Positions 1 to 48,306 of a stretch of 64,000 nucleotides of DNA are shown piece by piece. The translations under genes were made by a program, and so were the position numbers. Numbering within the stretch: the first letter of the stretch is position 1; each line of letters begins with the position of its first letter. Source of the stretch: Clostridia bacterium. GTDB taxonomy: Bacteria > Bacillota > Clostridia > Oscillospirales > CAG-272. Where the stretch lies: NCBI GenBank assembly GCA_017547755.1, contig JAFYOX010000009.1, positions 5,949 to 69,948 of the forward strand, in the 5' to 3' direction. Below the pieces are notes generated by a model. It was given only the letters and a program-made list of their open reading frames with translations, did not search any database and was not told the origin of the DNA.

Positions 1-1207
1 ACGTTTCACCCTTGACGATATCCTCCGCAAACGCCATGCAGGTCGGTGCGCCGCAGGAGCCGCAGTCGAGCTTCGGAAGACCTTCCGTAATGGACTCGAT
101 ATCGGCCATCATACGGAGAGCCGTCTGACGGTCTTCGGAGAGGAGATTGTAGGGATTGTATTCCACTTCGTTTTCATCGTAATATTCGTCCGGGATATAT
201 TCGCTGACCGGGCGATTCGGCGAAACCGGAAGATACCGCTTGAGGATCTGGAGTCTCGCCTGAGCAATGTACGGATTTGCAACCGTCATCGCGCCGCCGA
301 CGCAGCCGCCGGAGCAGGCGTTGAGTTCCACAAAATCAAGGCTGGTGATATCTTCGTTGTCGATCTGATCGAGAACGCGAATGCAGTTCTCGATGCCGGA
401 TGCGGCGAGATACCGTTCGTTGAAGATCGCCGTGGATTCCCCGCCGGTCGATGCCCAGCCGATCCCGACCATGCCGGATTCGGTGGACTCCAGGGGTTCG
501 TCCTGACGCCGCTTCATTTTATCGATGAGTTCAAAGTACACGTCGCGCACCGAAATGGTGGCATCGATATAATTCCGCTCACCGGCGAAATCGTTCTTCA
601 CGTAGCTGACCTTTGCGGGACAGGGGGAGATGAAGAAGATGCCGATATCCTCATCGCTCAGTTCCGGATGTTCCCTCTTGGCCTTTTCGCGCGCAAGATG
701 CGCTGCGATATCGACCGGCGGCAGGATCGGCATGATGTTCTCACAAAGCATCGGATAGTTCATGCTGATCAGGCGCGTGATTGCGGGGCAGGCAGAGCTG
801 ATCACGGGTTTGGGGATATTCTTCCGTTTTATGTACAGCCGTGTGTACGCGGAAACAAGTTCGGCGGCACAGGCGACCTCAAAGACATCGTCGAAGCCCA
901 TATCGCGGAGACCGCGGATAATGTAGCCGATATTGTCCATGTTGTCGAACTGACCGTACAGAGACGGAGCGGGAAGCGCAACGGTATATTTGTAATCGTT
1001 TATGCACGACAGGGGGTCATGCGTAGCTTTTTTTGCTTTGTACGGACAGACTTTGATACACTCTCCGCAGTCGATACAGCGAGCGGAAGAGATCACAGCA
1101 TGTCCGTCGCGTATACGAATCGCTTCGGTCGGGCAGCGCTTCAGGCAGGTAGTACAGCCCTTGCACTTGCTCACATCCAGCGAGACCGAATGTTTGTAAT
1201 CCTTCAT
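1..1207 (-). CDS. [FeFe]-hydrogenase-like Fe-S protein of the sensory (HydS-like) type; C-terminus runs off the window
   Basis: Absent from the ORF track because it leaves the window. Minus-strand ATG at 1207-1205 is preceded by GGAGGA (complement of 1211-1216). My translation starts MKDYKHSVSLDVSKCKGCTTCLKRCPTEAIRIRDGHAVISSARCIDCGECIKVCP, which carries two 4Fe-4S ferredoxin motifs. It continues with H-cluster-like motifs ISSACPA, ISPCPAK and ELNACSGGCVGG, then a distal CGSCGAPTC motif. The canonical TSCCP cysteine is Ala, as in sensory hydrogenases. Confidence 0.7.
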   Translation of the reverse strand, partial: MKDYKHSVSLDVSKCKGCTTCLKRCPTEAIRIRDGHAVISSARCIDCGECIKVCPYKAKKATHDPLSCINDYKYTVALPAPSLYGQFDNMDNIGYIIRGLRDMGFDDVFEVACAAELVSAYTRLYIKRKNIPKPVISSACPAITRLISMNYPMLCENIMPILPPVDIAAHLAREKAKREHPELSDEDIGIFFISPCPAKVSYVKNDFAGERNYIDATISVRDVYFELIDKMKRRQDEPLESTESGMVGIGWASTGGESTAIFNERYLAASGIENCIRVLDQIDNEDITSLDFVELNACSGGCVGGAMTVANPYIAQARLQILKRYLPVSPNRPVSEYIPDEYYDENEVEYNPYNLLSEDRQTALRMMADIESITEGLPKLDCGSCGAPTCMAFAEDIVKGET

Positions 1208-3873: not shown

Positions 3874-6651
3874 TCAATCTTTTTTTGCTTTTTTATCCGT
3901 ACGCTTTTTTCTTCCGGCTGCCTTGGAAATCTCCCAGACCGCAAGCATCAGCACCGCCGGGATCAGCGCGAACAGACTGTAGATCCCGCACGGTTTTCCG
4001 CCGACCCACGCCGCACCGAACGGCGTCAGCAGGATCACGGGAACCAGGATCACGGTCATCAGCGCAAAGCCGAAAAATGCGTAGTTGATCCGCACATGAC
4101 GGAACAGACTGCCGCGCTTCATGCACTCGCTCGCCATGATCAGCCCGCCGAGAAGCAGCGTACCGGCGAGAAGGGTGATGTCCTGTCCCGCGGCAAAACG
4201 CAGATGGAAGTACGGCTTTACCAGCTTCAGCACAAGCACCAGCGCCGGTGCGGAAAGACCCCATCCGAGCCCAGCGCCGAGCGCTTTCCGGATGCTGATC
4301 GGAATGAATTTTCCCGTTTTTTCCGTAAGTTCCCGCGGAACATCGTCGTCGTGCTCGAACGCCATCACAAGGACCGCCGCAAAGTCAAACAGCAGTCCCC
4401 AGACAAGGATCGACACTTCGTCGAGCAGGGGAACCTGCGGCAGAAGCACCGCCGCAAGGATAACCGCCAGACGCGCGATCTGCGCGGACGTCATATAGAA
4501 CGCCGACGTTTTGATGCTGCGCACCGCCTGTCTGGAGATCCGGAACGAACGCAGGATGCCGCTGAGTCCGCCGCGTCCGGTTCTGGACGCGGAACGTACC
4601 ACAGCCGCCGCATTCCGCGACAGCGGTTCCGGTACGGAACGGTATGCCGACGCGGCGGATGCAAATCCCACGTCTGCCTGCCGCAGAACGTCAAGATCGC
4701 TGACTTCCCGTCCGACGGCGGCGGTCACGGGACGGTTTTCCGCATCCGCCGTCATGATCTTCTTCATCACGTCGGATTTCATGGACGCGGGGATCCCGTA
4801 TTTCATTTCGGGGAACGAAACGATCATGCCGTTCTCCGTCAGATCCCGGACATCGCTTTCCTGAAGTTCGCTGTACGGAACCACTCTGGTCTTTTTGTTC
4901 ATCAGTCCGATATCATGGCAGTAGTACAGGTCGCGTTCCGGCTCGGAAGAAAGCAGGATCGGAACGATGCCGTTCTCACGCATATACGCAAGACTTTCCT
5001 TCATTCCGGCTTCCGCCTGTTCCGACACCGCAAAGAATCCGACGAACGTCATATCCTGTATGATCACCGCCAGGCGGCTGAGCGTGGTGTATTCCGAAGA
5101 AACCTTCGCCACGGCAACGATCTTCGCGCCGATATATTCCAGTTTCGCACATTCCGTAAAAATTTTCCGGCGCATTGCCGGATCCAGAGGAACCACACCG
5201 TGTTCTCCCTGACAGGACGTGCAGACCCTCAGAACCTCCGCGATCCCGCCGCACGAAACGGCAAGAACGCCGTTTCCGTACGCGATCAGCGAGGTATCGA
5301 GTCCCGCCGCAAAAACATTGGCGGAATCCACATGGTCGAGCACGGGATATTCCCGGTAAACGTTTTTTCCGTCCGATTTCCGCGAACGGATCTCGGCGGC
5401 AGTCCGTACCACGCGGGCACGGTCGCTGATCTTTTCCGCGATGCCGCTCGACAGGGAACGTCCGGACGCATCGGCGGAAGCCGCGGGAATCGCCAGAGCG
5501 ATCATTTCATCAAGTCCCTGATCGTCTGCGATCTCCGAAGCACGGTCGTAATAGGAACCGTCTGCACGGTAGGCATGGATCTCCGCACTGCCCGATTCGA
5601 AAAACGAGCTGCCGCAGAAAACGATCCGTCCGACATGGGCAAGCGATTCGATCGCCGCCGGACGGCGGATCTGTGTACGGACCGCAGAGGCATCCTTCTG
5701 CGCTTCTTCGTTTCCCGCACAGCGGTAAACGGAGGCGGCGATGATGATATGTCCGATGACCGTCAGATATTCGCTCATCGCGGCAACGGACATGGCAAGT
5801 GTCGTCAGGAAAATTTCCGGAAGCGTGAATCCGTCGCGGCAGAACAGCGACAGCACGGTGATCCCCATCACGCAGGCAAGCATGACAAGGCTTGTGAACC
5901 GGCACCAGCCCTCCAGCTTTTCGATCAGCGGCAGACGTCCGGACGGCTCGATCTCAATGCCGTCCTGCTTCATGGAGATCAGGGAATACATCCCGCATGA
6001 CGTCGCGGCGATACGCAGATTCCCCGAGAGGACCACCGATCCCGCAAAAAGCATATTCGAGCGGTATTCACACGGGACTTCCCCGCTCTTTGCGGAGGTG
6101 TCGATCACTGTGTCGAATTTATGTACCGGGGTATTGTTTTCCGTGATCCCGCGTTCGCTGACCACGGAGTCTTCCCCTGCCAGAATACGTCCGTCACACG
6201 GCACCGTGCTTCCGGCTTCCAGAAACAGAATATCTCCGGGAACGATCTCCCGTGCCGACAGCAGTTTCATCTGCCCGTCCCGGATCACCGTCGCGACAGG
6301 AATAAAGCCTTCCGCCATCTTCTCGAGAATGCGGTTTGCGCGGATATAGACGATCGAGCGCAGGATCCCGCCGAGAACGAGAATGACCGTGACCGCCAGC
6401 GCCGCACCGCTCTGGTCAAACAGAGCCGCAGCCGCCGCACTGACGATCAGAAGAAGCGTCGCGATATCGAACAGGGATTCGCTGACCGCCGTGAACGCAG
6501 ACATCCTCTTCACGTGCCAGATGTTGTTGGCACCGTATTTTTTCCGGCGTCTCGCGGCTTCCTTTCCGGTCAGACCCTTGTACATATCGGTTCCGAGCGC
6601 CGCGGTCACGTCGGCATTCTTCATAAGATGCCAGTCGTTTCGGTATTTCAT
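3874..6651 (-). CDS. P-type (type II, Ca2+-ATPase-like) ATPase homologue with degenerate catalytic motifs
   Basis: 925 aa. It has a Cation_ATPase_N-like N-terminus (GLTGKEAARRRKKYGANN) and about 10 predicted TM segments. DKTGT is replaced by FCGSSFFESG, TGES by ITENN, DPPR by SEQA, GDGVND by GREVSD, and the M4 PEGLP by SEYLT. Confidence 0.85.
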   Translation of the reverse strand: MKYRNDWHLMKNADVTAALGTDMYKGLTGKEAARRRKKYGANNIWHVKRMSAFTAVSESLFDIATLLLIVSAAAAALFDQSGAALAVTVILVLGGILRSIVYIRANRILEKMAEGFIPVATVIRDGQMKLLSAREIVPGDILFLEAGSTVPCDGRILAGEDSVVSERGITENNTPVHKFDTVIDTSAKSGEVPCEYRSNMLFAGSVVLSGNLRIAATSCGMYSLISMKQDGIEIEPSGRLPLIEKLEGWCRFTSLVMLACVMGITVLSLFCRDGFTLPEIFLTTLAMSVAAMSEYLTVIGHIIIAASVYRCAGNEEAQKDASAVRTQIRRPAAIESLAHVGRIVFCGSSFFESGSAEIHAYRADGSYYDRASEIADDQGLDEMIALAIPAASADASGRSLSSGIAEKISDRARVVRTAAEIRSRKSDGKNVYREYPVLDHVDSANVFAAGLDTSLIAYGNGVLAVSCGGIAEVLRVCTSCQGEHGVVPLDPAMRRKIFTECAKLEYIGAKIVAVAKVSSEYTTLSRLAVIIQDMTFVGFFAVSEQAEAGMKESLAYMRENGIVPILLSSEPERDLYYCHDIGLMNKKTRVVPYSELQESDVRDLTENGMIVSFPEMKYGIPASMKSDVMKKIMTADAENRPVTAAVGREVSDLDVLRQADVGFASAASAYRSVPEPLSRNAAAVVRSASRTGRGGLSGILRSFRISRQAVRSIKTSAFYMTSAQIARLAVILAAVLLPQVPLLDEVSILVWGLLFDFAAVLVMAFEHDDDVPRELTEKTGKFIPISIRKALGAGLGWGLSAPALVLVLKLVKPYFHLRFAAGQDITLLAGTLLLGGLIMASECMKRGSLFRHVRINYAFFGFALMTVILVPVILLTPFGAAWVGGKPCGIYSLFALIPAVLMLAVWEISKAAGRKKRTDKKAKKD

Positions 6652-15603: not shown

Positions 15604-16134
15604 TTATTTTATCTTCCCCGCCATGGAAGTCGGTTTGTTGTAGTATTCGGCAAGCCTTGACGTCCCCGAATGCGCGTGGCAGATCGCGGCGGCAAGGGCG
15701 TCGGCGGTATCGTCCGGCTTCGGAGGCTTGGCAAGCCCGAGAAGCATCGTCACCATTTCGATGATCTGATGCTTGTCCGCACGGCCGTAGCCGACGACGG
15801 CCTGCTTGATCTGAAGCGGGGTATATTCATAGATCGGGAGACCCGCCTGCCGGCAGGCGAGAAGCAGAACTCCCCGCGCTTCCGCAACGATGATCCCCGT
15901 TTTCTGGTTGGTGTTGAAGAAAAGTTCCTCGATCGCGGCACATTCCGGCTTGTATTTTGCGATGATCGCCGTCAGTTCTTCGTACACATGAAGGATGCGG
16001 TCTTCGGTTTTCTGTCCCGAATCCGTCGTGATCGCTCCGCATGCAATCGGGCGGATCTTCGTACCGAATCCGGAATAGTCGACGATCCCCCATCCGACAA
16101 TGGCGATGCCGGGGTCGATTCCGAGAATAATCAT
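15604..16134 (-). CDS. ruvC: Crossover junction endodeoxyribonuclease RuvC
   Basis: The protein starts MIILGIDPG and has the RNase-H-fold acidic residues of the RuvC family. Confidence 0.9.
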   Translation of the reverse strand: MIILGIDPGIAIVGWGIVDYSGFGTKIRPIACGAITTDSGQKTEDRILHVYEELTAIIAKYKPECAAIEELFFNTNQKTGIIVAEARGVLLLACRQAGLPIYEYTPLQIKQAVVGYGRADKHQIIEMVTMLLGLAKPPKPDDTADALAAAICHAHSGTSRLAEYYNKPTSMAGKIK

Positions 16135-16282
16135 AAAATCCCAGTATTTCTCCGATTATAATATTGTAATGATATATTATAGCATAGAATGAAGCATATG
16201 TCAAAAGTCTTTATGGAATTTTTGGTGAACAAAGTATAACTTTTTCCTTCTGCGTATTTTTTGATAATTTTCACACTTACTC

Positions 16283-16311
16283 TTGACAAATTCGCCCATA
16301 TGCGGTACAAT
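16283..16311 (+). promoter_or_regulatory. Sigma-A type promoter of the T-box leader
   Basis: TTGACA (16283-16288), a 17-nt spacer, then TACAAT (16306-16311). Confidence 0.8.
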
Positions 16312-16317
16312 GTACCC

Positions 16318-16600
16318 AATAGCGATGACGGAGAGCGTACAGGCGGAAGATCCCCAGAGAAAGCGGCACCGGAAAAATCCGGAAACGGTGCGAGCCGCTG
16401 ATCCAATTCCCGATACGGTAGCTCCCAAGCTGAAAGAAAGAAAGCGGTTTTCCGTGAGTAGAATCTTTCCGTAACTGCCCCGTAAACGGCATAGAACTTG
16501 TCAGAGTTCGAGAGAGGCAGCCTATCTTTTGCGGCTGCAATTTGAGTGGTACCGCGGACATTCCTGTTCGTCTCAAAGATTTCTTTGGGGCGTTTTTTTA
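16318..16600 (+). promoter_or_regulatory. T-box riboswitch leader (tRNA-sensing transcription attenuator)
   Basis: Stem I elements are present: GCGATGA (K-turn side), CAGAGAAAGCGGC (AG box) and GGTGCGAGCCGC (distal loop). The T-box sequence AATTTGAGTGGTACCGCGG lies at 16539-16557. An antiterminator GAG/UGGUACC-bulge/GCGGAC...GUUCGU/CUC competes with the terminator CGTCTCAAAG-attt-CTTTGGGGCG (16569-16592), which is followed by TTTTTTTATTT. Confidence 0.85.
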
Positions 16601-16651
16601 TTTCATAAAATTACGTTCCGACAAAATCTCTATATAGATCTGGAGTTTATA

Positions 16652-18955
16652 ATGAAAAGCAATATTACCGCGCTGGAATTCAAAATCCACGAAATGGCCG
16701 CCCGTATTGCGGAACTTCGTGAAATCGAAGGATTCAGCACTGCCGAAATGGCTGCTAAGACCGGTATTACCGAAGCAGAATACATCGAATGCGAAAGCGG
16801 ACGCCTGAATCTGACCTTCGCGTTCATCTATCGCTGCGCGCTGGCGTTCAACGTCGATGTCACCGACATCATCGAAGGGAAAAGCCCGACGCTTGCCGGA
16901 TACACCGTTACCCGTGCCGGAAACGGTCAGAAGATCGAACAGGCGCACGGTCTGACCTACTTCAACCTCGCTTCTTCCTTCAAAAACCGTATTGCCGAAC
17001 CGCTGTATGTCGTTGCCGAATACAACGAGACCGCGGAACGCTCCGACATTGAACTGACCACCCACGACGGTCAGGAATGCGACATCGTCATTTCCGGGAC
17101 CCTGAAGGTACAGGTCGGTGAACACAGCGAGATCCTGAAGCCGGGCGACAGCATCTACTACGACAGCTCGATCCCGCACGGCATGGTCGCCGTCGAAGGT
17201 GCGGACTGTCTCTTCTACGCGATCGTTCTCAATCCCGCCGGAGAAGCGGAAGACGAACGTGAAGTCGAAGTTACGGCGGCAAGACCCTCCATCGTTGCAA
17301 CCACGGACAAATCGAAATATCTCTACAAGAAATACATCGAGACCAAAAAGGATGCCAACGGCACTCCCGTTGAAATCAAGATCACCGGCGAAGACAAATT
17401 CAACTTTGCCTTTGACATCATCGACGTGCTCGGCACCGAAAAACCGGATAAGCTCGCCATGCTCCATGTTGCGAACGACGGCGTGACCGAAAAGCGCATC
17501 ACCTTCCACGATCTCAAGCGTGCGTCCGCACAGTGCGCGAACTACTTCAAGTCGCTCGGCATCAGGAAAGGCGACCGCGTCATGCTCATCCTGAAGCGTC
17601 ACTACCAGTACTGGTTCGCCATGCTCGGTCTGAACAAGCTGGGCGCGATCGCGATCCCCGCACCGAACCAGCTCCTCGTGCATGACCTTGAATACCGCTT
17701 CAACTCCGCCGGCGTTTCCGCGATCCTCTGCACCGCGGACGGCGACACCGCGCATCAGGTCGACATGGCTGCCGAAAAGTGTGACTGCCTCAGGACGAAG
17801 ATCATCGTAAACGGCGAACGCGAAGGCTGGCGCAGCTTCGACGAAGAATACAACCTCTTCAGCGGCAAGTTCGAACGCACCGACGACAGCCCGTGCGGCA
17901 ATGATCCGCTTCTCATGTTCTTCACCTCCGGTACGACCGGTTACCCGAAGATCGCAATGCACAACCACAAGTATCCGCTCGGCCACTTCCATACCGCGAA
18001 GTATTGGCACTGCGTGGATTCCTCCGACACCGGTCTGCACTTCACCATTTCCGATACCGGCTGGGCGAAGTCCATGTGGGGCAAGATGTACGGTCAGTGG
18101 ATCTGCGAAGCGGCGATCTTTGTCTACGACTTCGACCGCTTCGACGCGGCAAAGATCCTGCCGATGATCGGCAAGCACCGGATCACGACGTTCTGCGCAC
18201 CGCCGACCATGTATCGTATGCTCATCAAGGAAGACCTGTCGAAGTACGACTTCTCCTCCCTCAAGCACGCGACCACCGCAGGCGAAGCGCTCAACCCGGA
18301 AGTTTACCGAAAATTCGAAGAAATCACGGGACTCCAGATCATGGAAGGCTTCGGTCAGTCCGAAACGACCTGCATGATCGGCAACCTGACCGGCGCGCCG
18401 CATAAGCTCGGCTCCATGGGCAGACCGTGTCCTCTCTATGATATCCACCTCATCGACGCGGACGGCAACGAAACCGCCGACGGTGAAACCGGCGAAATCG
18501 TGGTCAACGTTGCTGACGGCGCACCGTGCGGCCTCTTCACCGGCTACTACAACGACGAAGCGAAGACCGCCGAAGTATGGCACGACGGCTACTACCACAC
18601 CGGCGACACCGCATGGCGTGACGAAGACGGCTTCCTTTGGTACGTCGGCCGCGTAGACGACGTCATCAAGTCCTCCGGCTACCGCATCGGGCCGTTCGAA
18701 ATCGAAAACGTCATCATGGAACTCCCCTACGTTGTGGAATGCGGCGTTTCCCCGGAACCGGACGAAATCCGCGGACAGGTCGTCAAGGCTTCCATCGTCC
18801 TCACCAAGGGCACCGAACCGACCGAAGAACTCAAAAAGAAAATCCAGAACTACGTCAAGCAGAACACCGCTCCCTACAAATATCCGAGAATCATCGTCTT
18901 CCGCGATGAACTCCCGAAAACCACCAGCGGCAAGATCATGCGCAACAAGTTATAA
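16652..18955 (+). CDS. Fusion protein: XRE-family HTH plus cupin domain fused to an AMP-forming (medium/short-chain) acyl-CoA synthetase
   Basis: ATG 16652 lies behind GGAG. The N-terminus has an HTH (FSTAEMAAKTGITEAEYIECESG) and a cupin (GDSIYYDSSIPHGM). The C-terminal part has adenylation motifs FFTSGTTGYPK, YHTGD, SSGYRIGPFEIE and PKTTSGKIMR. Confidence 0.9.
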   Translation: MKSNITALEFKIHEMAARIAELREIEGFSTAEMAAKTGITEAEYIECESGRLNLTFAFIYRCALAFNVDVTDIIEGKSPTLAGYTVTRAGNGQKIEQAHGLTYFNLASSFKNRIAEPLYVVAEYNETAERSDIELTTHDGQECDIVISGTLKVQVGEHSEILKPGDSIYYDSSIPHGMVAVEGADCLFYAIVLNPAGEAEDEREVEVTAARPSIVATTDKSKYLYKKYIETKKDANGTPVEIKITGEDKFNFAFDIIDVLGTEKPDKLAMLHVANDGVTEKRITFHDLKRASAQCANYFKSLGIRKGDRVMLILKRHYQYWFAMLGLNKLGAIAIPAPNQLLVHDLEYRFNSAGVSAILCTADGDTAHQVDMAAEKCDCLRTKIIVNGEREGWRSFDEEYNLFSGKFERTDDSPCGNDPLLMFFTSGTTGYPKIAMHNHKYPLGHFHTAKYWHCVDSSDTGLHFTISDTGWAKSMWGKMYGQWICEAAIFVYDFDRFDAAKILPMIGKHRITTFCAPPTMYRMLIKEDLSKYDFSSLKHATTAGEALNPEVYRKFEEITGLQIMEGFGQSETTCMIGNLTGAPHKLGSMGRPCPLYDIHLIDADGNETADGETGEIVVNVADGAPCGLFTGYYNDEAKTAEVWHDGYYHTGDTAWRDEDGFLWYVGRVDDVIKSSGYRIGPFEIENVIMELPYVVECGVSPEPDEIRGQVVKASIVLTKGTEPTEELKKKIQNYVKQNTAPYKYPRIIVFRDELPKTTSGKIMRNKL

Positions 18956-18966
18956 AATATGCTTTT

Positions 18967-19191
18967 GCGGGGAAAAACTTTTTGAAAAAAGTTTTTCCCC
19001 GCACTCCTTTTCAAAAACTTTTATACTATATGGGCAGACAAAAAAAGTGCAGATTTGAAGGAATAAAACGGCTGTAAGCCTTACAGAAATTTTATTCCTT
19101 CAAATCTGCACTTTCTATGTATATTCTTTTCGTTTAAAAGTTTTTGAAGAGGGGTCCGGGGAGGAACTTTTTTCAAAAAGTTCCTCCCCGG
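18967..19191. repeat. Composite nested palindromic element, copy 1, between convergent genes
   Basis: Palindrome A is at 18967-19002 (GCGGGGAAAAACTTTTT/AAAAAGTTTTTCCCCGC), followed by the flank CCTTTTCAAAAACTTTTA. The central hairpin has arms 19044-19068 and 19090-19114 (25 bp, AAAGTGCAGATTTGAAGGAATAAAA) with an inner CTGTAA/TTACAG pair. The inverted flank TAAAAGTTTTTGAAGAGGGG follows, then palindrome C at 19156-19191. Confidence 0.9.
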
Positions 19192-19206
19192 GAAATACTA
19201 TTCTCA

Positions 19207-20775
19207 TCAATCAAAATTCACGCCGTAGTCGATGGATTTGCCGTCGGGGCCGGTGACGGTGTAGTAGAGGACGTTGCCGGTTGCGTTTACGCGGATGCCT
19301 TCGAGCTGACCGATGTAGATCGTCTGGGCATTGCCGTTCTGGAAGATCATGACAAGACGGTAGTCCGAAGCGCTGCCGCCGTACAGACCTTTTCCGTAGA
19401 GGATGGTGCAGCGTTCCGCTTCATAGTTATAGAGAATTTCCGCGCCCGCTTTCGCGTCGCTGACTGCGGTACTGTATGCGCTGTTCGTTCCCGCAGAAGC
19501 GGCCGGCGAAGTATAGATCGGAACGGACGTGCTCTTGTTGAGGTTCGAGAGTTCCGTCAGACCGCTGGCTTCCAGGATCACGGAATCCTGCATACCCGCA
19601 AGGAATTTCACGTCGTATATGGAAGAGAGATCGATTTTTTCATCAAAATAGAACGCATAAGTGGTGTATTCATCGCCGGAAGCATCCGTGTGTTCCGCAT
19701 ACCAGAGCTGCGTGACCGGGATCCGGTTTCCGTTGATGTAAAGGTATGCCAGACTGTTGATCGCGTAATATTTATCCGCAATGTCGTTGACTGCCTTGCC
19801 GTTGATGCCGACTGCCGCATTGTCCAGCCAGCCGCGCGCGATGCTGAGGGATTCATAGCCGCATCCCTTGTAGAGACGGAAGGACAGGCAGTTCGATTCC
19901 AGTTCTACATTGGTCGCCAGACTGAGCATGCACGCACTGTCGACCGTTACGCTGCCGTTCGCAACCGTAAAGTCTGCGCCGATACCGCTGATGCCGGTGA
20001 TGTTCTGTGCCTTTTTCGAACCGGGATAGAGGCTGAGCTTATTGGAAGAAGTCTGCGCGGTGATATTTCCGACGACGGTGGAAGAAGACGTATTTCCGGT
20101 CGAAGAAGGCGCGGAAGAAGGCTGCTGAACCGCTCCTGCCTTGACTCGCACCGACGGATCGATCATGCGCATGACCACCGCGGAGATTTCACTCCGCTTT
20201 ACCGCGGATTCCGGCTGAATATTTTTGTGTTCGTCGCCGGTCATCAGTCCCCAGCGGTACATCCGGTAAACCGCTCCGGCATACCACGCCTCCGTGTTCA
20301 CATCCGGCAGAACGCCGAACGCCGCCGTGTTGATCTCATCCATATTCCCTTTCGCGGAAATGAGCGCACGGGAGAAAAGAACCGCTACCTGTCCGCGCGT
20401 CGCCGGTGCATTGTAGTCCGGATACACTTCGGTTGCAATGCCGTTGGTGGTCGCGTAATCCACATAACCGTCGTACCAGTTGGACGTGGAGGACGGGATA
20501 TTGGACGCCGCGCCGGTGGAGATCAGCTGATGGCAGGATGCCGCCAGTTTGATCGTCTGGGCAATGGTCAGAGTCGCGTCGGGTTCAAAAGAAGAGGCAC
20601 TCGTTCCGCTGATCAGTCCGAGCGAATATGCGGACGCCACTTCGTCGTAATACCACGCGTTCGCCGCTACATCCGAAAATTCACCGTTGTACGAACGCTG
20701 TGCCGTATATGCTCCCGCCGGCGTCACAAGGAAAAGCGCAGCCAGCGCGGAGGCAAGAATTTTTCTGCATTTCAT
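19207..20775 (-). CDS. SLH-domain cell-surface protein
   Basis: A signal peptide (MKCRKILASALAALFLVTPAGA) is followed by SLH-like repeats (FSDVAANAWYYDEVASAYSLGLISGTS..., and EAWYAGAVYRMYRWGLMTGD). Confidence 0.8.
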   Translation of the reverse strand: MKCRKILASALAALFLVTPAGAYTAQRSYNGEFSDVAANAWYYDEVASAYSLGLISGTSASSFEPDATLTIAQTIKLAASCHQLISTGAASNIPSSTSNWYDGYVDYATTNGIATEVYPDYNAPATRGQVAVLFSRALISAKGNMDEINTAAFGVLPDVNTEAWYAGAVYRMYRWGLMTGDEHKNIQPESAVKRSEISAVVMRMIDPSVRVKAGAVQQPSSAPSSTGNTSSSTVVGNITAQTSSNKLSLYPGSKKAQNITGISGIGADFTVANGSVTVDSACMLSLATNVELESNCLSFRLYKGCGYESLSIARGWLDNAAVGINGKAVNDIADKYYAINSLAYLYINGNRIPVTQLWYAEHTDASGDEYTTYAFYFDEKIDLSSIYDVKFLAGMQDSVILEASGLTELSNLNKSTSVPIYTSPAASAGTNSAYSTAVSDAKAGAEILYNYEAERCTILYGKGLYGGSASDYRLVMIFQNGNAQTIYIGQLEGIRVNATGNVLYYTVTGPDGKSIDYGVNFD

Positions 20776-47238: not shown

Positions 47239-47289
47239 ATACAACGTCAGCGAGAGAGAACAAAAAACTCTCCGAAAGATAAAGCTGAT

Positions 47290-47360
47290 AGCGGTATTGT
47301 GTAAAGGTAGCACAGCAGACTCTGACTCTGTATGTTGGGGTTCGAATCCCTATACCGCTG
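47290..47360 (+). tRNA. tRNA-Gln (anticodon CUG)
   Basis: A hand-folded cloverleaf has acceptor AGCGGTA/TACCGCT, D-stem GTGT/GCAC, anticodon stem GCAGA/TCTGT with loop CTCTGAC, T-arm TGGGG-TTCGAAT-CCCTA and discriminator G. Confidence 0.8.
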
Positions 47361-47371
47361 TTAAAAAGAAT

Positions 47372-48222: not shown

Positions 48223-48306
48223 GCCGGTATGTTGGAATTGGCAGACGAGGCGGACTCAAAATCCGCTGCTGGCGACAGCGTGCGGGTTCGACCCCCGCTA
48301 CCGGCA
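48223..48306 (+). tRNA. tRNA-Leu (anticodon CAA)
   Basis: Acceptor GCCGGTA/TACCGGC, anticodon stem GCGGA/TCCGC with loop CTCAAAA, long variable arm GCTG-gcga-CAGC, T-arm GCGGG-TTCGACC-CCCGC and discriminator A. Confidence 0.9.

Follow-up and report, generated by a model that had tools for sequence, protein, structure and literature searches.

A valine-specifier T-box leader precedes an acyl-CoA synthetase fusion gene in gut Clostridia and probably governs isobutyrate activation for valine synthesis

The window, a stretch of 64,000 nt from a Clostridia bacterium of the CAG-272 lineage (assembly GCA_017547755.1, contig JAFYOX010000009.1, positions 5,949 to 69,948 of the forward strand), carries a T-box riboswitch leader directly upstream of a gene for a helix-turn-helix (HTH)-cupin-acyl-CoA synthetase fusion protein. 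The specifier codon of this leader is GUA, and the RNA is almost certainly a valine-specific T-box. The whole chain that the data point to, in which a tRNA-Val T-box controls the activation of isobutyrate for the synthesis of valine via reductive carboxylation, is probable. An earlier sequence-only reading of the window had recognized both the T-box and the synthetase and had set the latter against the amino-acid genes that such leaders usually control. The synthetase target stands, but the contrast does not, as the gene is in effect one of amino-acid supply by an alternative route.

The leader lies within a 517-nt intergenic region that separates the fusion gene (16652-18955) from the divergent ruvC gene on the minus strand (15604-16134), and its parts are collected in Table 1. 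The consensus promoter claimed in the sequence-only reading is borne out, and its hexamers align among the orthologous leaders; likewise, the hallmarks that had been listed for the RNA, namely the Stem I motifs and the T-box sequence, are all in place. When a 501-nt stretch was searched with the Rfam T-box model RF00230, the leader was matched over model positions 1-219 of 219 with 50.5 bits and an E value of 3.3e-10. It should be noted that the gathering score for RF00230 in the release used is 93 bits, which is an operational, not a structural, criterion; in a default scan of the whole window at this threshold only two tRNAs were reported, and the T-box surfaced only with permissive filters. 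The expectation that the model would score the leader was thus realized with respect to the significance of the match, not with respect to the curated threshold. Leaders of the same gene in other genomes score from 35 to 98.8 bits, with locus L008 at the top and above the gathering score. The sublineage to which the window belongs (L001-L005 and L009) combines insertions with low scores, the closest relatives being lowest at 35-67 bits. The low score is due to lineage-specific insertions, one of which adds a hairpin to the distal loop of Stem I; in the leader alignment, this hairpin is restricted to the window, L001, L004, and L009, and it folds as a self-contained unit. The leader fails only the score threshold of Rfam and structurally qualifies as a T-box.

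The 3' part of the leader can adopt two alternative folds, as had been anticipated. Because positions 16569-16575 are common to the 3' arm of the antiterminator and the 5' arm of the intrinsic terminator, which ends in seven U residues, the two helices are mutually exclusive. In the computed fold of 16541-16600, the terminator wins (-12.6 vs -9.6 kcal/mol), and this preference corresponds to the default 'off' state expected of a T-box. The UGGU noticed earlier is confirmed at the start of the 7-nt antiterminator bulge, and it is predicted to pair with the 3' ACCA of the tRNA.

Table 1. Positions of the leader elements, the fusion gene, and its domains in the window
Feature	Nucleotides	Residues	Strand	Details
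Promoter, sigma-70-type	16283-16311		+	TTGACA 16283-16288, 17-nt spacer, TACAAT 16306-16311; 11 of 12 consensus matches
T-box leader	16316-16578		+	Stem I, Stem II, IIA/B, Stem III, antiterminator; RF00230 match
Stem I	16321-16431		+	Base pairs GC 16322-16323 / GC 16429-16430; GA-type base GCGAUGA
Specifier-loop closing helix	16330-16333 / 16422-16425		+	GGAG / CUCC; encloses a large internal loop
AG bulge	16356-16360		+	AGAGA; in Stem I
Distal helix of Stem I	16363-16367 / 16394-16398		+	GCGGC / GCCGC
Extra hairpin in Stem I distal loop	16369-16382		+	CCGG-AAAAAU-CCGG; 25 nt where RF00230 expects 10
Distal-loop motif	16387-16393		+	GGUGCGA; in Stem I
Specifier codon	16418-16420		+	GUA (Val), then purine G16421; RF00230 model alignment, orthologue columns
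Stem II	16432-16469		+	GAAAGA 16432-16437 / UCUUUC 16464-16469, inner hairpin
Stem III	16494-16509		+	GAACU/AGUUC
T-box sequence, 19 nt	16539-16557		+	AATTTGAGTGGTACCGCGG = AAUUUGAGUGGUACCGCGG; unchanged in 79 of 79 leaders
Antiterminator	16543-16575		+	UGAG[UGGUACC]GCGGA...UUCGUCUCA; UGAG 16543-16546, bulge UGGUACC 16547-16553, GCGGA 16554-16558, UUCGU 16567-16571, CUCA 16572-16575; -9.6 kcal/mol
Intrinsic terminator	16569-16599		+	10-bp stem 16569-16592 CGUCUCAAAG/CUUUGGGGCG, loop AUUU, U7; -12.6 kcal/mol, z = -5.2
Ribosome-binding site	16642-16645		+	GGAG, 6 nt before ATG; read from sequence
HTH-cupin-acyl-CoA synthetase fusion gene	16652-18955	767 aa	+	ATG 16652; Pfam domains, orthologues
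XRE-type HTH, HTH_19	16700-16882	17-77	+	28.8 bits vs Pfam cut-off 30.2 (just under)
Cupin_2	17048-17224	133-191	+	43.1 bits vs cut-off 27.2; H138, E142, H176 invariant
Catalytic region (AMP-binding + AMP-binding_C)	17438-18934	263-761	+	
AMP-binding		263-633	+	223.6 bits vs cut-off 29.9
AMP-binding_C		683-761	+	73.7 bits vs cut-off 24.5
Terminator hairpin after stop codon	18966-19003		+	17-bp stem

The leader is not peculiar to the window. When one genome was scanned for each species, at least 591 loci were found to encode a relative of the fusion protein, and the best 80 of them (69-96% identity) were analyzed, all from metagenome-assembled genomes (MAGs) of gut or rumen Clostridia (Acutalibacteraceae, Oscillospiraceae, and 'Eubacteriales'). 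In 79 of the 80 loci, the orthologue is preceded at 77-180 nt by the T-box core TGGTACCGCG; the sole exception is L029, in which no T-box core was seen in the locus. The T-box structure was specified by hand on the alignment of the 79 leaders and compared with controls in which the pairing partners were slid and with 500 shuffles; the pairs proposed by RNAalifold were replaced by hand, having mis-paired the AGAGA bulge with the 3' strand of the antiterminator and placed a spurious 2-bp hairpin at the base of Stem I. The structure is 89.7% paired, compared with 39-47% when the partners are slid, and compensatory changes are found in 39 of the 51 pairs, values that none of the 500 shuffles reach. 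The specifier-loop closing helix is 99.7% paired, with compensatory changes in three of its four pairs and with G-C replaced by A-U in 22 sequences, and the distal helix of Stem I is 98.4% paired, with covariation at nearly every pair. Stem II (helix 7) and Stem III (helix 10) are 99.4% and 95.7% paired and show compensatory change at all six and all five of their pairs, respectively; helices 12 and 13 of the antiterminator (100% and 99.7%) and the terminator (98.6%) are similarly preserved. Since the core recurs in nearly all loci, pairing far exceeds that of the slid controls, and compensatory changes abound, the leader is conserved beyond chance. A pairing in the middle of Stem I that had been derived from the window, GGAAGAUC with GAUC..UUCC, was dropped, as it is only 40-64% paired among the orthologues.

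These data also bear on whether the window's T-box is decaying and no longer responsive to tRNA, the gene then being expressed at a low constitutive level or under the control of its own HTH-cupin module. Such a state could account for a score well below the gathering score, for the lowest scores of all among the closest relatives, and for the extra distal-loop hairpin and the variant kink-turn of this sublineage. However, AGAGA, GGUGCGA, GUA with its purine, the 19-nt T-box sequence, UGGU, and the terminator with its U7 are all intact, and the insertion is a self-contained hairpin; decay would not keep an invariant specifier together with compensatory pairs. We therefore regard a decayed leader as highly improbable.

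For the specifier, the sequence-only reading had offered four candidates, GUA (Val), AUA (Ile), UAC (Tyr), and ACG (Thr), and it had recommended that orthologous leaders be compared. This comparison fixes the codon as Val, in agreement with the amino acid that the downstream gene is predicted to serve: GUA has stood, and the other three have fallen. In the column directly 5' of the closing helix, GTA is present in 78 of the 79 leaders and GTC in the remaining one, and the next base is G or A. The loop bases preceding it vary freely, and most leaders read TTTGTAG. ACGGTAG is confined to the window and L001, the only two leaders in which UAC, AUA, and ACG occur, outside the canonical position. 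GUA itself occupies that position, 2-4 nt from the 3' end of the loop. A purine and then the closing CUCC helix come next, and in the minimum-free-energy fold computed for Stem I of the window, precisely GUAG stays unpaired. Aligned columns resolved the specifier in all leaders, compared with only ~70% for a structure-based heuristic. TBDB likewise locates specifiers 2-4 nt before the 3' end of the loop, and among those for Val it has GUA in first place with 61%, just as AUC (99%) and CUC (77%) dominate among those for Ile and Leu. Moreover, a third T-box is found on the opposite strand in 17 loci, with CTC (Leu) before a LeuA-like gene in 16 of them and GTC before a valyl-tRNA synthetase gene in the other. 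Because the same reading of the loop gives the correct amino acid for these leuA and valS controls, the Val call for the window is secure.

It can still be asked whether a tRNA other than tRNA-Val is read through an overlapping frame in CGAUACGGUAG, which would mean that the substrate of the enzyme is unrelated to valine. The triplets UAC (Tyr), GGU (Gly), ACG (Thr), and AUA (Ile) all lie within the window's specifier loop; GUA alone is conserved among the orthologues, GGU being rejected on this ground, and UAC lies 5-7 nt from the end of the loop, beyond the canonical position. In addition, the bulge of a Gly T-box should read UGGA, to match discriminator U, and not UGGU as in this leader. 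Alternative specifier frames are documented in at least one T-box in TBDB, but GGU, ACG, and AUA each account for no more than 2% of their own classes there. Taken together, a frame for any of these tRNAs is scarcely credible.

As the sequence-only reading had proposed, the sole gene behind the leader encodes an AMP-forming acyl-CoA synthetase fused to further domains, which is evident from its Pfam domains, its matches to 3ETC and ACSM proteins, and its monocistronic setting, the next gene (an SLH-domain protein, 19207-20775) being on the other strand. The ANL core motifs are present as SGTTG (426), YHTGD (648), and SGKI (759). The mechanical list of open reading frames gives a frame of 808 aa (16529-18955) that opens with a TTG inside the antiterminator; the real start is the ATG at 16652, preceded by a GGAG ribosome-binding site, and the database entries P0004 (795 aa) and P0021 (786 aa) may be over-extended at the start in the same way. 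Public names for the protein are generic ('AMP-binding protein', 'acetyl-CoA synthetase', 'cupin domain-containing protein'), and all of its carriers are MAGs.

The closest solved structure is 3ETC, the Macs protein of Methanosarcina acetivorans, which is matched over the whole catalytic region with 620 bits (E 2e-185). In the Protein Data Bank (PDB) ranking, 3ETC, 8BIQ, and ACSM2A are at the top, ahead of all entries for acetyl-CoA synthetase (Acs); 3ETC outranks both a 4-hydroxybutyrate-CoA ligase and human ACSM2A, and the acetyl-CoA synthetases are far behind. The EGFGQSE motif of the fusion protein (aa 565-571) holds Gly568, which we take to be aligned with the second Trp of the Acs motif WWQTE. 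In Macs, which prefers 2-methylbutyrate, Gly likewise replaces the pocket Trp of Acs (Trp416 in AcsMt, Trp414 in AcsSe) (PMC10455477). An acetate-specific Acs was rejected on the basis of this pocket Gly and of the closest PDB matches, Macs and ACSM. The best NCBIfam match is MbcS (NF047394, 431.5 bits); membership in this equivalog family was rejected, as the score is far from the cut-off of 850 bits, and the protein is a relative of MbcS only. MbcS is selective for 2-methylbutyrate and isobutyrate, acts poorly on isovalerate and butyrate, and is inactive on acetate (PMC10026030). On these grounds, the fusion protein is predicted to be an isobutyrate--CoA ligase (AMP-forming).

What ties this enzyme to valine in relatives is the company that its gene keeps. 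In about 65 of the 80 loci, the Val-class synthetase gene is followed, at gaps of ~13 nt, by a CbiA/ParA-like gene, a ferredoxin gene, the genes for the alpha, beta, and gamma subunits of a four-subunit VorB-type oxidoreductase, and ilvE; this count reaches only to the 4-kb flank, within which 39 loci hold the full set up to IlvE in the standard order, while three have IlvE ahead of the CbiA-like gene. Locus L081 may serve as an example: on one strand and with gaps of ~13 nt, it has an Ile-T-box paralogue, the Val-T-box orthologue, a CbiA/ParA-like gene, a gene for a 68-aa 4Fe-4S ferredoxin, and genes with POR_N/PFOR_II, TPP_enzyme_C, POR gamma, and Aminotran_4 domains. By NCBIfam, its alpha subunit is '3-methyl-2-oxobutanoate dehydrogenase subunit VorB' (537 bits vs a cut-off of 399), and its last gene encodes a branched-chain amino acid aminotransferase, IlvE (486 bits vs a cut-off of 307). 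The CbiA/ParA-like P-loop gene (220 aa, 12305-12967 in L081) has no NCBIfam match, stands always between the Val synthetase and the ferredoxin-oxidoreductase genes in the ~65 loci, and may encode a maturation or accessory factor.

The second tie is the paralogue. In 58 of the 80 loci, all within L006-L080, a tandem copy of the fusion gene lies directly upstream, at ~2.7 kb from the orthologue, and encodes a protein with 60-65% identity to that of the window; neither the window nor its nearest relatives have this copy. This copy has a T-box of its own, the specifier of which is ATC (Ile) in all 58 leaders, and these leaders score 106-110 bits on RF00230. At residue 472, right after the GW of TGWAK and presumably the counterpart of the Val/Ile of the Acs pocket, the Val class has Ala and the Ile class has Gly, an exchange that fits a smaller C4 and a larger C5 acid, respectively. 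By analogy, the Val/Ile pair fits the substrates of MbcS, which are isobutyrate and 2-methylbutyrate, not isovalerate. Leucine appears to be served instead by the Leu-T-box leuA, which would draw on 2-oxoisovalerate. The suggestion of the sequence-only reading, activation of a branched short-chain acid on its way to a branched-chain amino acid (BCAA), is therefore supported from three sides, by the isoleucine specifier of the paralogue, by the linkage to VorB and IlvE, and by the substrates of the nearest enzymes.

It is in this setting that the use of isobutyryl-CoA has to be judged, since it might mainly prime the synthesis of iso-branched fatty acids: a shortage of valine would remove the primer derived from valine, and external isobutyrate would replace it under the same Val T-box. 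MbcS, the best curated family match, has precisely such a documented role in S. aureus, and in the window's lineage the gene is unlinked to an oxidoreductase or IlvE, so nothing in the window genome ties it to amino-acid synthesis. On the other hand, the VorB-type oxidoreductase and IlvE that are strung together with the orthologue in most loci are needed for an amino acid, not for a primer; T-boxes report tRNA charging, a signal of protein synthesis; and no fatty-acid synthesis genes are adjacent. Primer supply as the main role is thus unlikely, though less so for the stand-alone gene of the window, and the two uses of isobutyryl-CoA can coexist.

The valine pathway that we favor would operate as follows. 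Transcription would start at the promoter at 16283-16311, and by default the leader would form the terminator at 16569-16599, ending transcription. At low valine, the uncharged form of tRNA-Val (anticodon UAC) would pair with GUA in Stem I, and its free 3' ACCA would pair with UGGU in the antiterminator bulge, which would stabilize the antiterminator and allow read-through into the fusion gene. The enzyme would then convert isobutyrate, ATP, and CoA into isobutyryl-CoA, a VorB-type 2-oxoisovalerate:ferredoxin oxidoreductase (VOR) would turn isobutyryl-CoA into 2-oxoisovalerate by reductive carboxylation, and IlvE would transaminate 2-oxoisovalerate to valine. In the window genome, the genes for the oxidoreductase and IlvE would have to lie outside the window. 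AMP-forming, that is, pyrophosphate-releasing, ligases are effectively irreversible towards the thioester and hence assimilatory; because of this, and because a valine catabolic route induced under valine starvation would be counter-productive, the anabolic direction is the one to be expected.

A number of observations weigh against this interpretation. With regard to the leader, the score of 50.5 bits is below the curated threshold of 93, and the insertion sits in the very distal loop that docks the tRNA elbow. The 3' side of the kink-turn in the window's sublineage reads CAAGC where GAGC is usual, the middle of Stem I (helices 3-5) is length-variable and only 40-64% paired over the orthologues, and the thermodynamic stability of Stem I is unexceptional (z = -0.67). 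No tRNA-Val gene, by which the anticodon and discriminator could be checked, was found in the window or among 60 related loci. With regard to the enzyme, 431 bits is far under the MbcS equivalog cut-off of 850. With regard to the pathway, the orthologue stands alone in 12 loci, including those of the window's closest relatives (L001-L005), as it does in the window, and no homologue of the oxidoreductase or IlvE is encoded anywhere in the 64 kb, which makes the downstream valine pathway a putative one for the window organism.

The region in front of the catalytic domain deserves separate consideration. HTH_3 is, like HTH_19, just under its cut-off (19.8 vs 23 bits), and the only match of the N-terminal 226 residues is 1Y9Q (HTH_3 plus cupin), which is marginal (E 0.005). 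Among the first 200 positions, 44 show an invariance of at least 97% in a set of 138 proteins, including H138, E142, and H176, which form a possible ligand or metal site. The catalytic domains of the Val and Ile classes share 74% identity, compared with 78-82% within a class, and the divergence is steeper in the HTH, with 42% between classes and 57-69% within, and in the cupin, for which the corresponding figures are 54% and 73-74%. Fifteen residues discriminate the classes, and 10 of these fall in the first 118 residues (residues 12-118; binomial P ~1e-5). Given that class divergence is concentrated in this module and that so many of its positions are invariant, it is under selection and class-specific. 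The module may serve in feedback sensing, DNA binding, or oligomerization. One may further speculate, tentatively, on a two-tier control in which the T-box reads the charging of tRNA-Val and the HTH-cupin module reads a metabolite and either inhibits the synthetase or represses in a BirA-like manner, so that the N-terminal module, more than the substrate pocket, would carry the Val or Ile identity. The metabolite may be valine, 2-oxoisovalerate, or the acyl-adenylate.

Several features of the surroundings are recorded here for completeness. Facing ruvC on the minus strand is a sigma-70 promoter (16176-16204) that matches the consensus at 12 of 12 positions and has an extended -10 TG; it is arranged back-to-back with the T-box promoter. 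The convergent intergenic region behind the fusion gene (18956-19206) contains near-identical palindromes, GGGGARRAACTTTTT..AAAAAGTTYYTCCCC, at 18966-19003 and 19155-19192, the sole copies in the window and probably bidirectional terminators, with a third long hairpin between them at ~19044-19108. The tRNA genes in the window are tRNA-Gln(CUG) at 47289-47361 and tRNA-Leu(CAA) at 48223-48306. In L029, the two paralogues are immediate neighbors (3971 to 4001), with an AP_endonuc-AMP-binding-like gene directly upstream, and all of them may form one longer operon. In the segment 17937-22169 of L081, which is on the same contig as L012, a third T-box with the core TGGTACCGCG at 18198 and CUC in its specifier region precedes a LeuA-like gene, which is followed by a gene for an 836-aa fusion of AP_endonuc_2 and AMP-binding and then by an Amidohydro_2 gene. 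This AP_endonuc_2 fusion, apparently under the Leu T-box, might be the isovalerate/leucine counterpart of the synthetases described here.

Fiber-degrading Clostridia of the rumen and gut have long been known to need or use isoacids such as isobutyrate and 2-methylbutyrate, which are fed to ruminants for this reason. The genes and the regulation that lead from isoacids to valine and isoleucine have so far been poorly assigned, and the specifiers supply predictions at the level of genes that can be tested. The specifier acts as a built-in label, in that GUA or AUC marks a synthetase as linked to valine or isoleucine in at least several hundred uncultured species, and it also ties these synthetases to the VorB-type oxidoreductase and IlvE; metabolic models of how amino acids are cross-fed within gut communities are improved by this. 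In addition, the known T-box regulon is extended to the salvage of fermentation acids, and it becomes apparent that the gathering threshold of Rfam misses real T-boxes of this lineage.

In the literature searched, no paper was found in which a T-box is connected with an acyl-CoA synthetase, with VOR, or with isobutyrate; Vitreschak 2008 was outside this scope, and a prior mention there is possible. The survey of Wels 2008, the regulon supplements of Sun 2013, and the TBDB paper mention no such T-box targets, and no paper was found that assigns these genes or this regulation to the isoacid carboxylation of rumen anaerobes. Within the same literature, the regulon member, the Val/Ile pairing of paralogues, and the HTH-cupin-synthetase architecture are new, whereas the RNA mechanism is ordinary, working like that of any class I transcriptional T-box.

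Comparison with known systems places the locus between several of them. The T-boxes of BCAA genes (valS, ileS, leuS, ilv-leu, and transporters) share with the window's leader the architecture and the presumed mechanism, the usual GUA for Val, and the logic by which uncharged tRNA induces the supply of its own amino acid. They control, however, tRNA synthetases, enzymes of de novo synthesis, or transporters, whereas the window's leader controls an acyl-CoA synthetase fusion and differs by its extra distal-loop hairpin and its sub-threshold Rfam score. MbcS of S. aureus is also AMP-forming, and its use of isobutyrate and 2-methylbutyrate but not isovalerate parallels the presence of only Val and Ile T-boxes before the paralogues; it is devoid of the HTH-cupin extension, no T-box has been described for it in the literature searched, and its role is the supply of primers, not amino-acid synthesis. 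Macs (MA4008, 3ETC) and the window protein both have Gly where Acs has its pocket Trp, but Macs is an archaeal single-domain enzyme without a riboswitch, in contrast to a protein that is fused and T-box-controlled. For the N-terminal 200 residues, the layout is that of 1Y9Q, an XRE HTH plus cupin regulator, with marginal similarity (E 0.005). BirA, in which a DNA-binding domain is combined with an adenylate-forming enzyme, offers no more than an analogy, a DNA-binding-type fold being joined to an adenylating enzyme in the fusion protein as well. Finally, Allison and co-workers reportedly showed that rumen anaerobes reductively carboxylate isobutyrate, 2-methylbutyrate, and isovalerate to valine, isoleucine, and leucine. 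Both this pathway, from acid to acyl-CoA, 2-oxoacid, and amino acid, and its habitat match the prediction made here; it is known from physiology and enzymology, whereas the loci described above have dedicated synthetases, and these only for valine and isoleucine.

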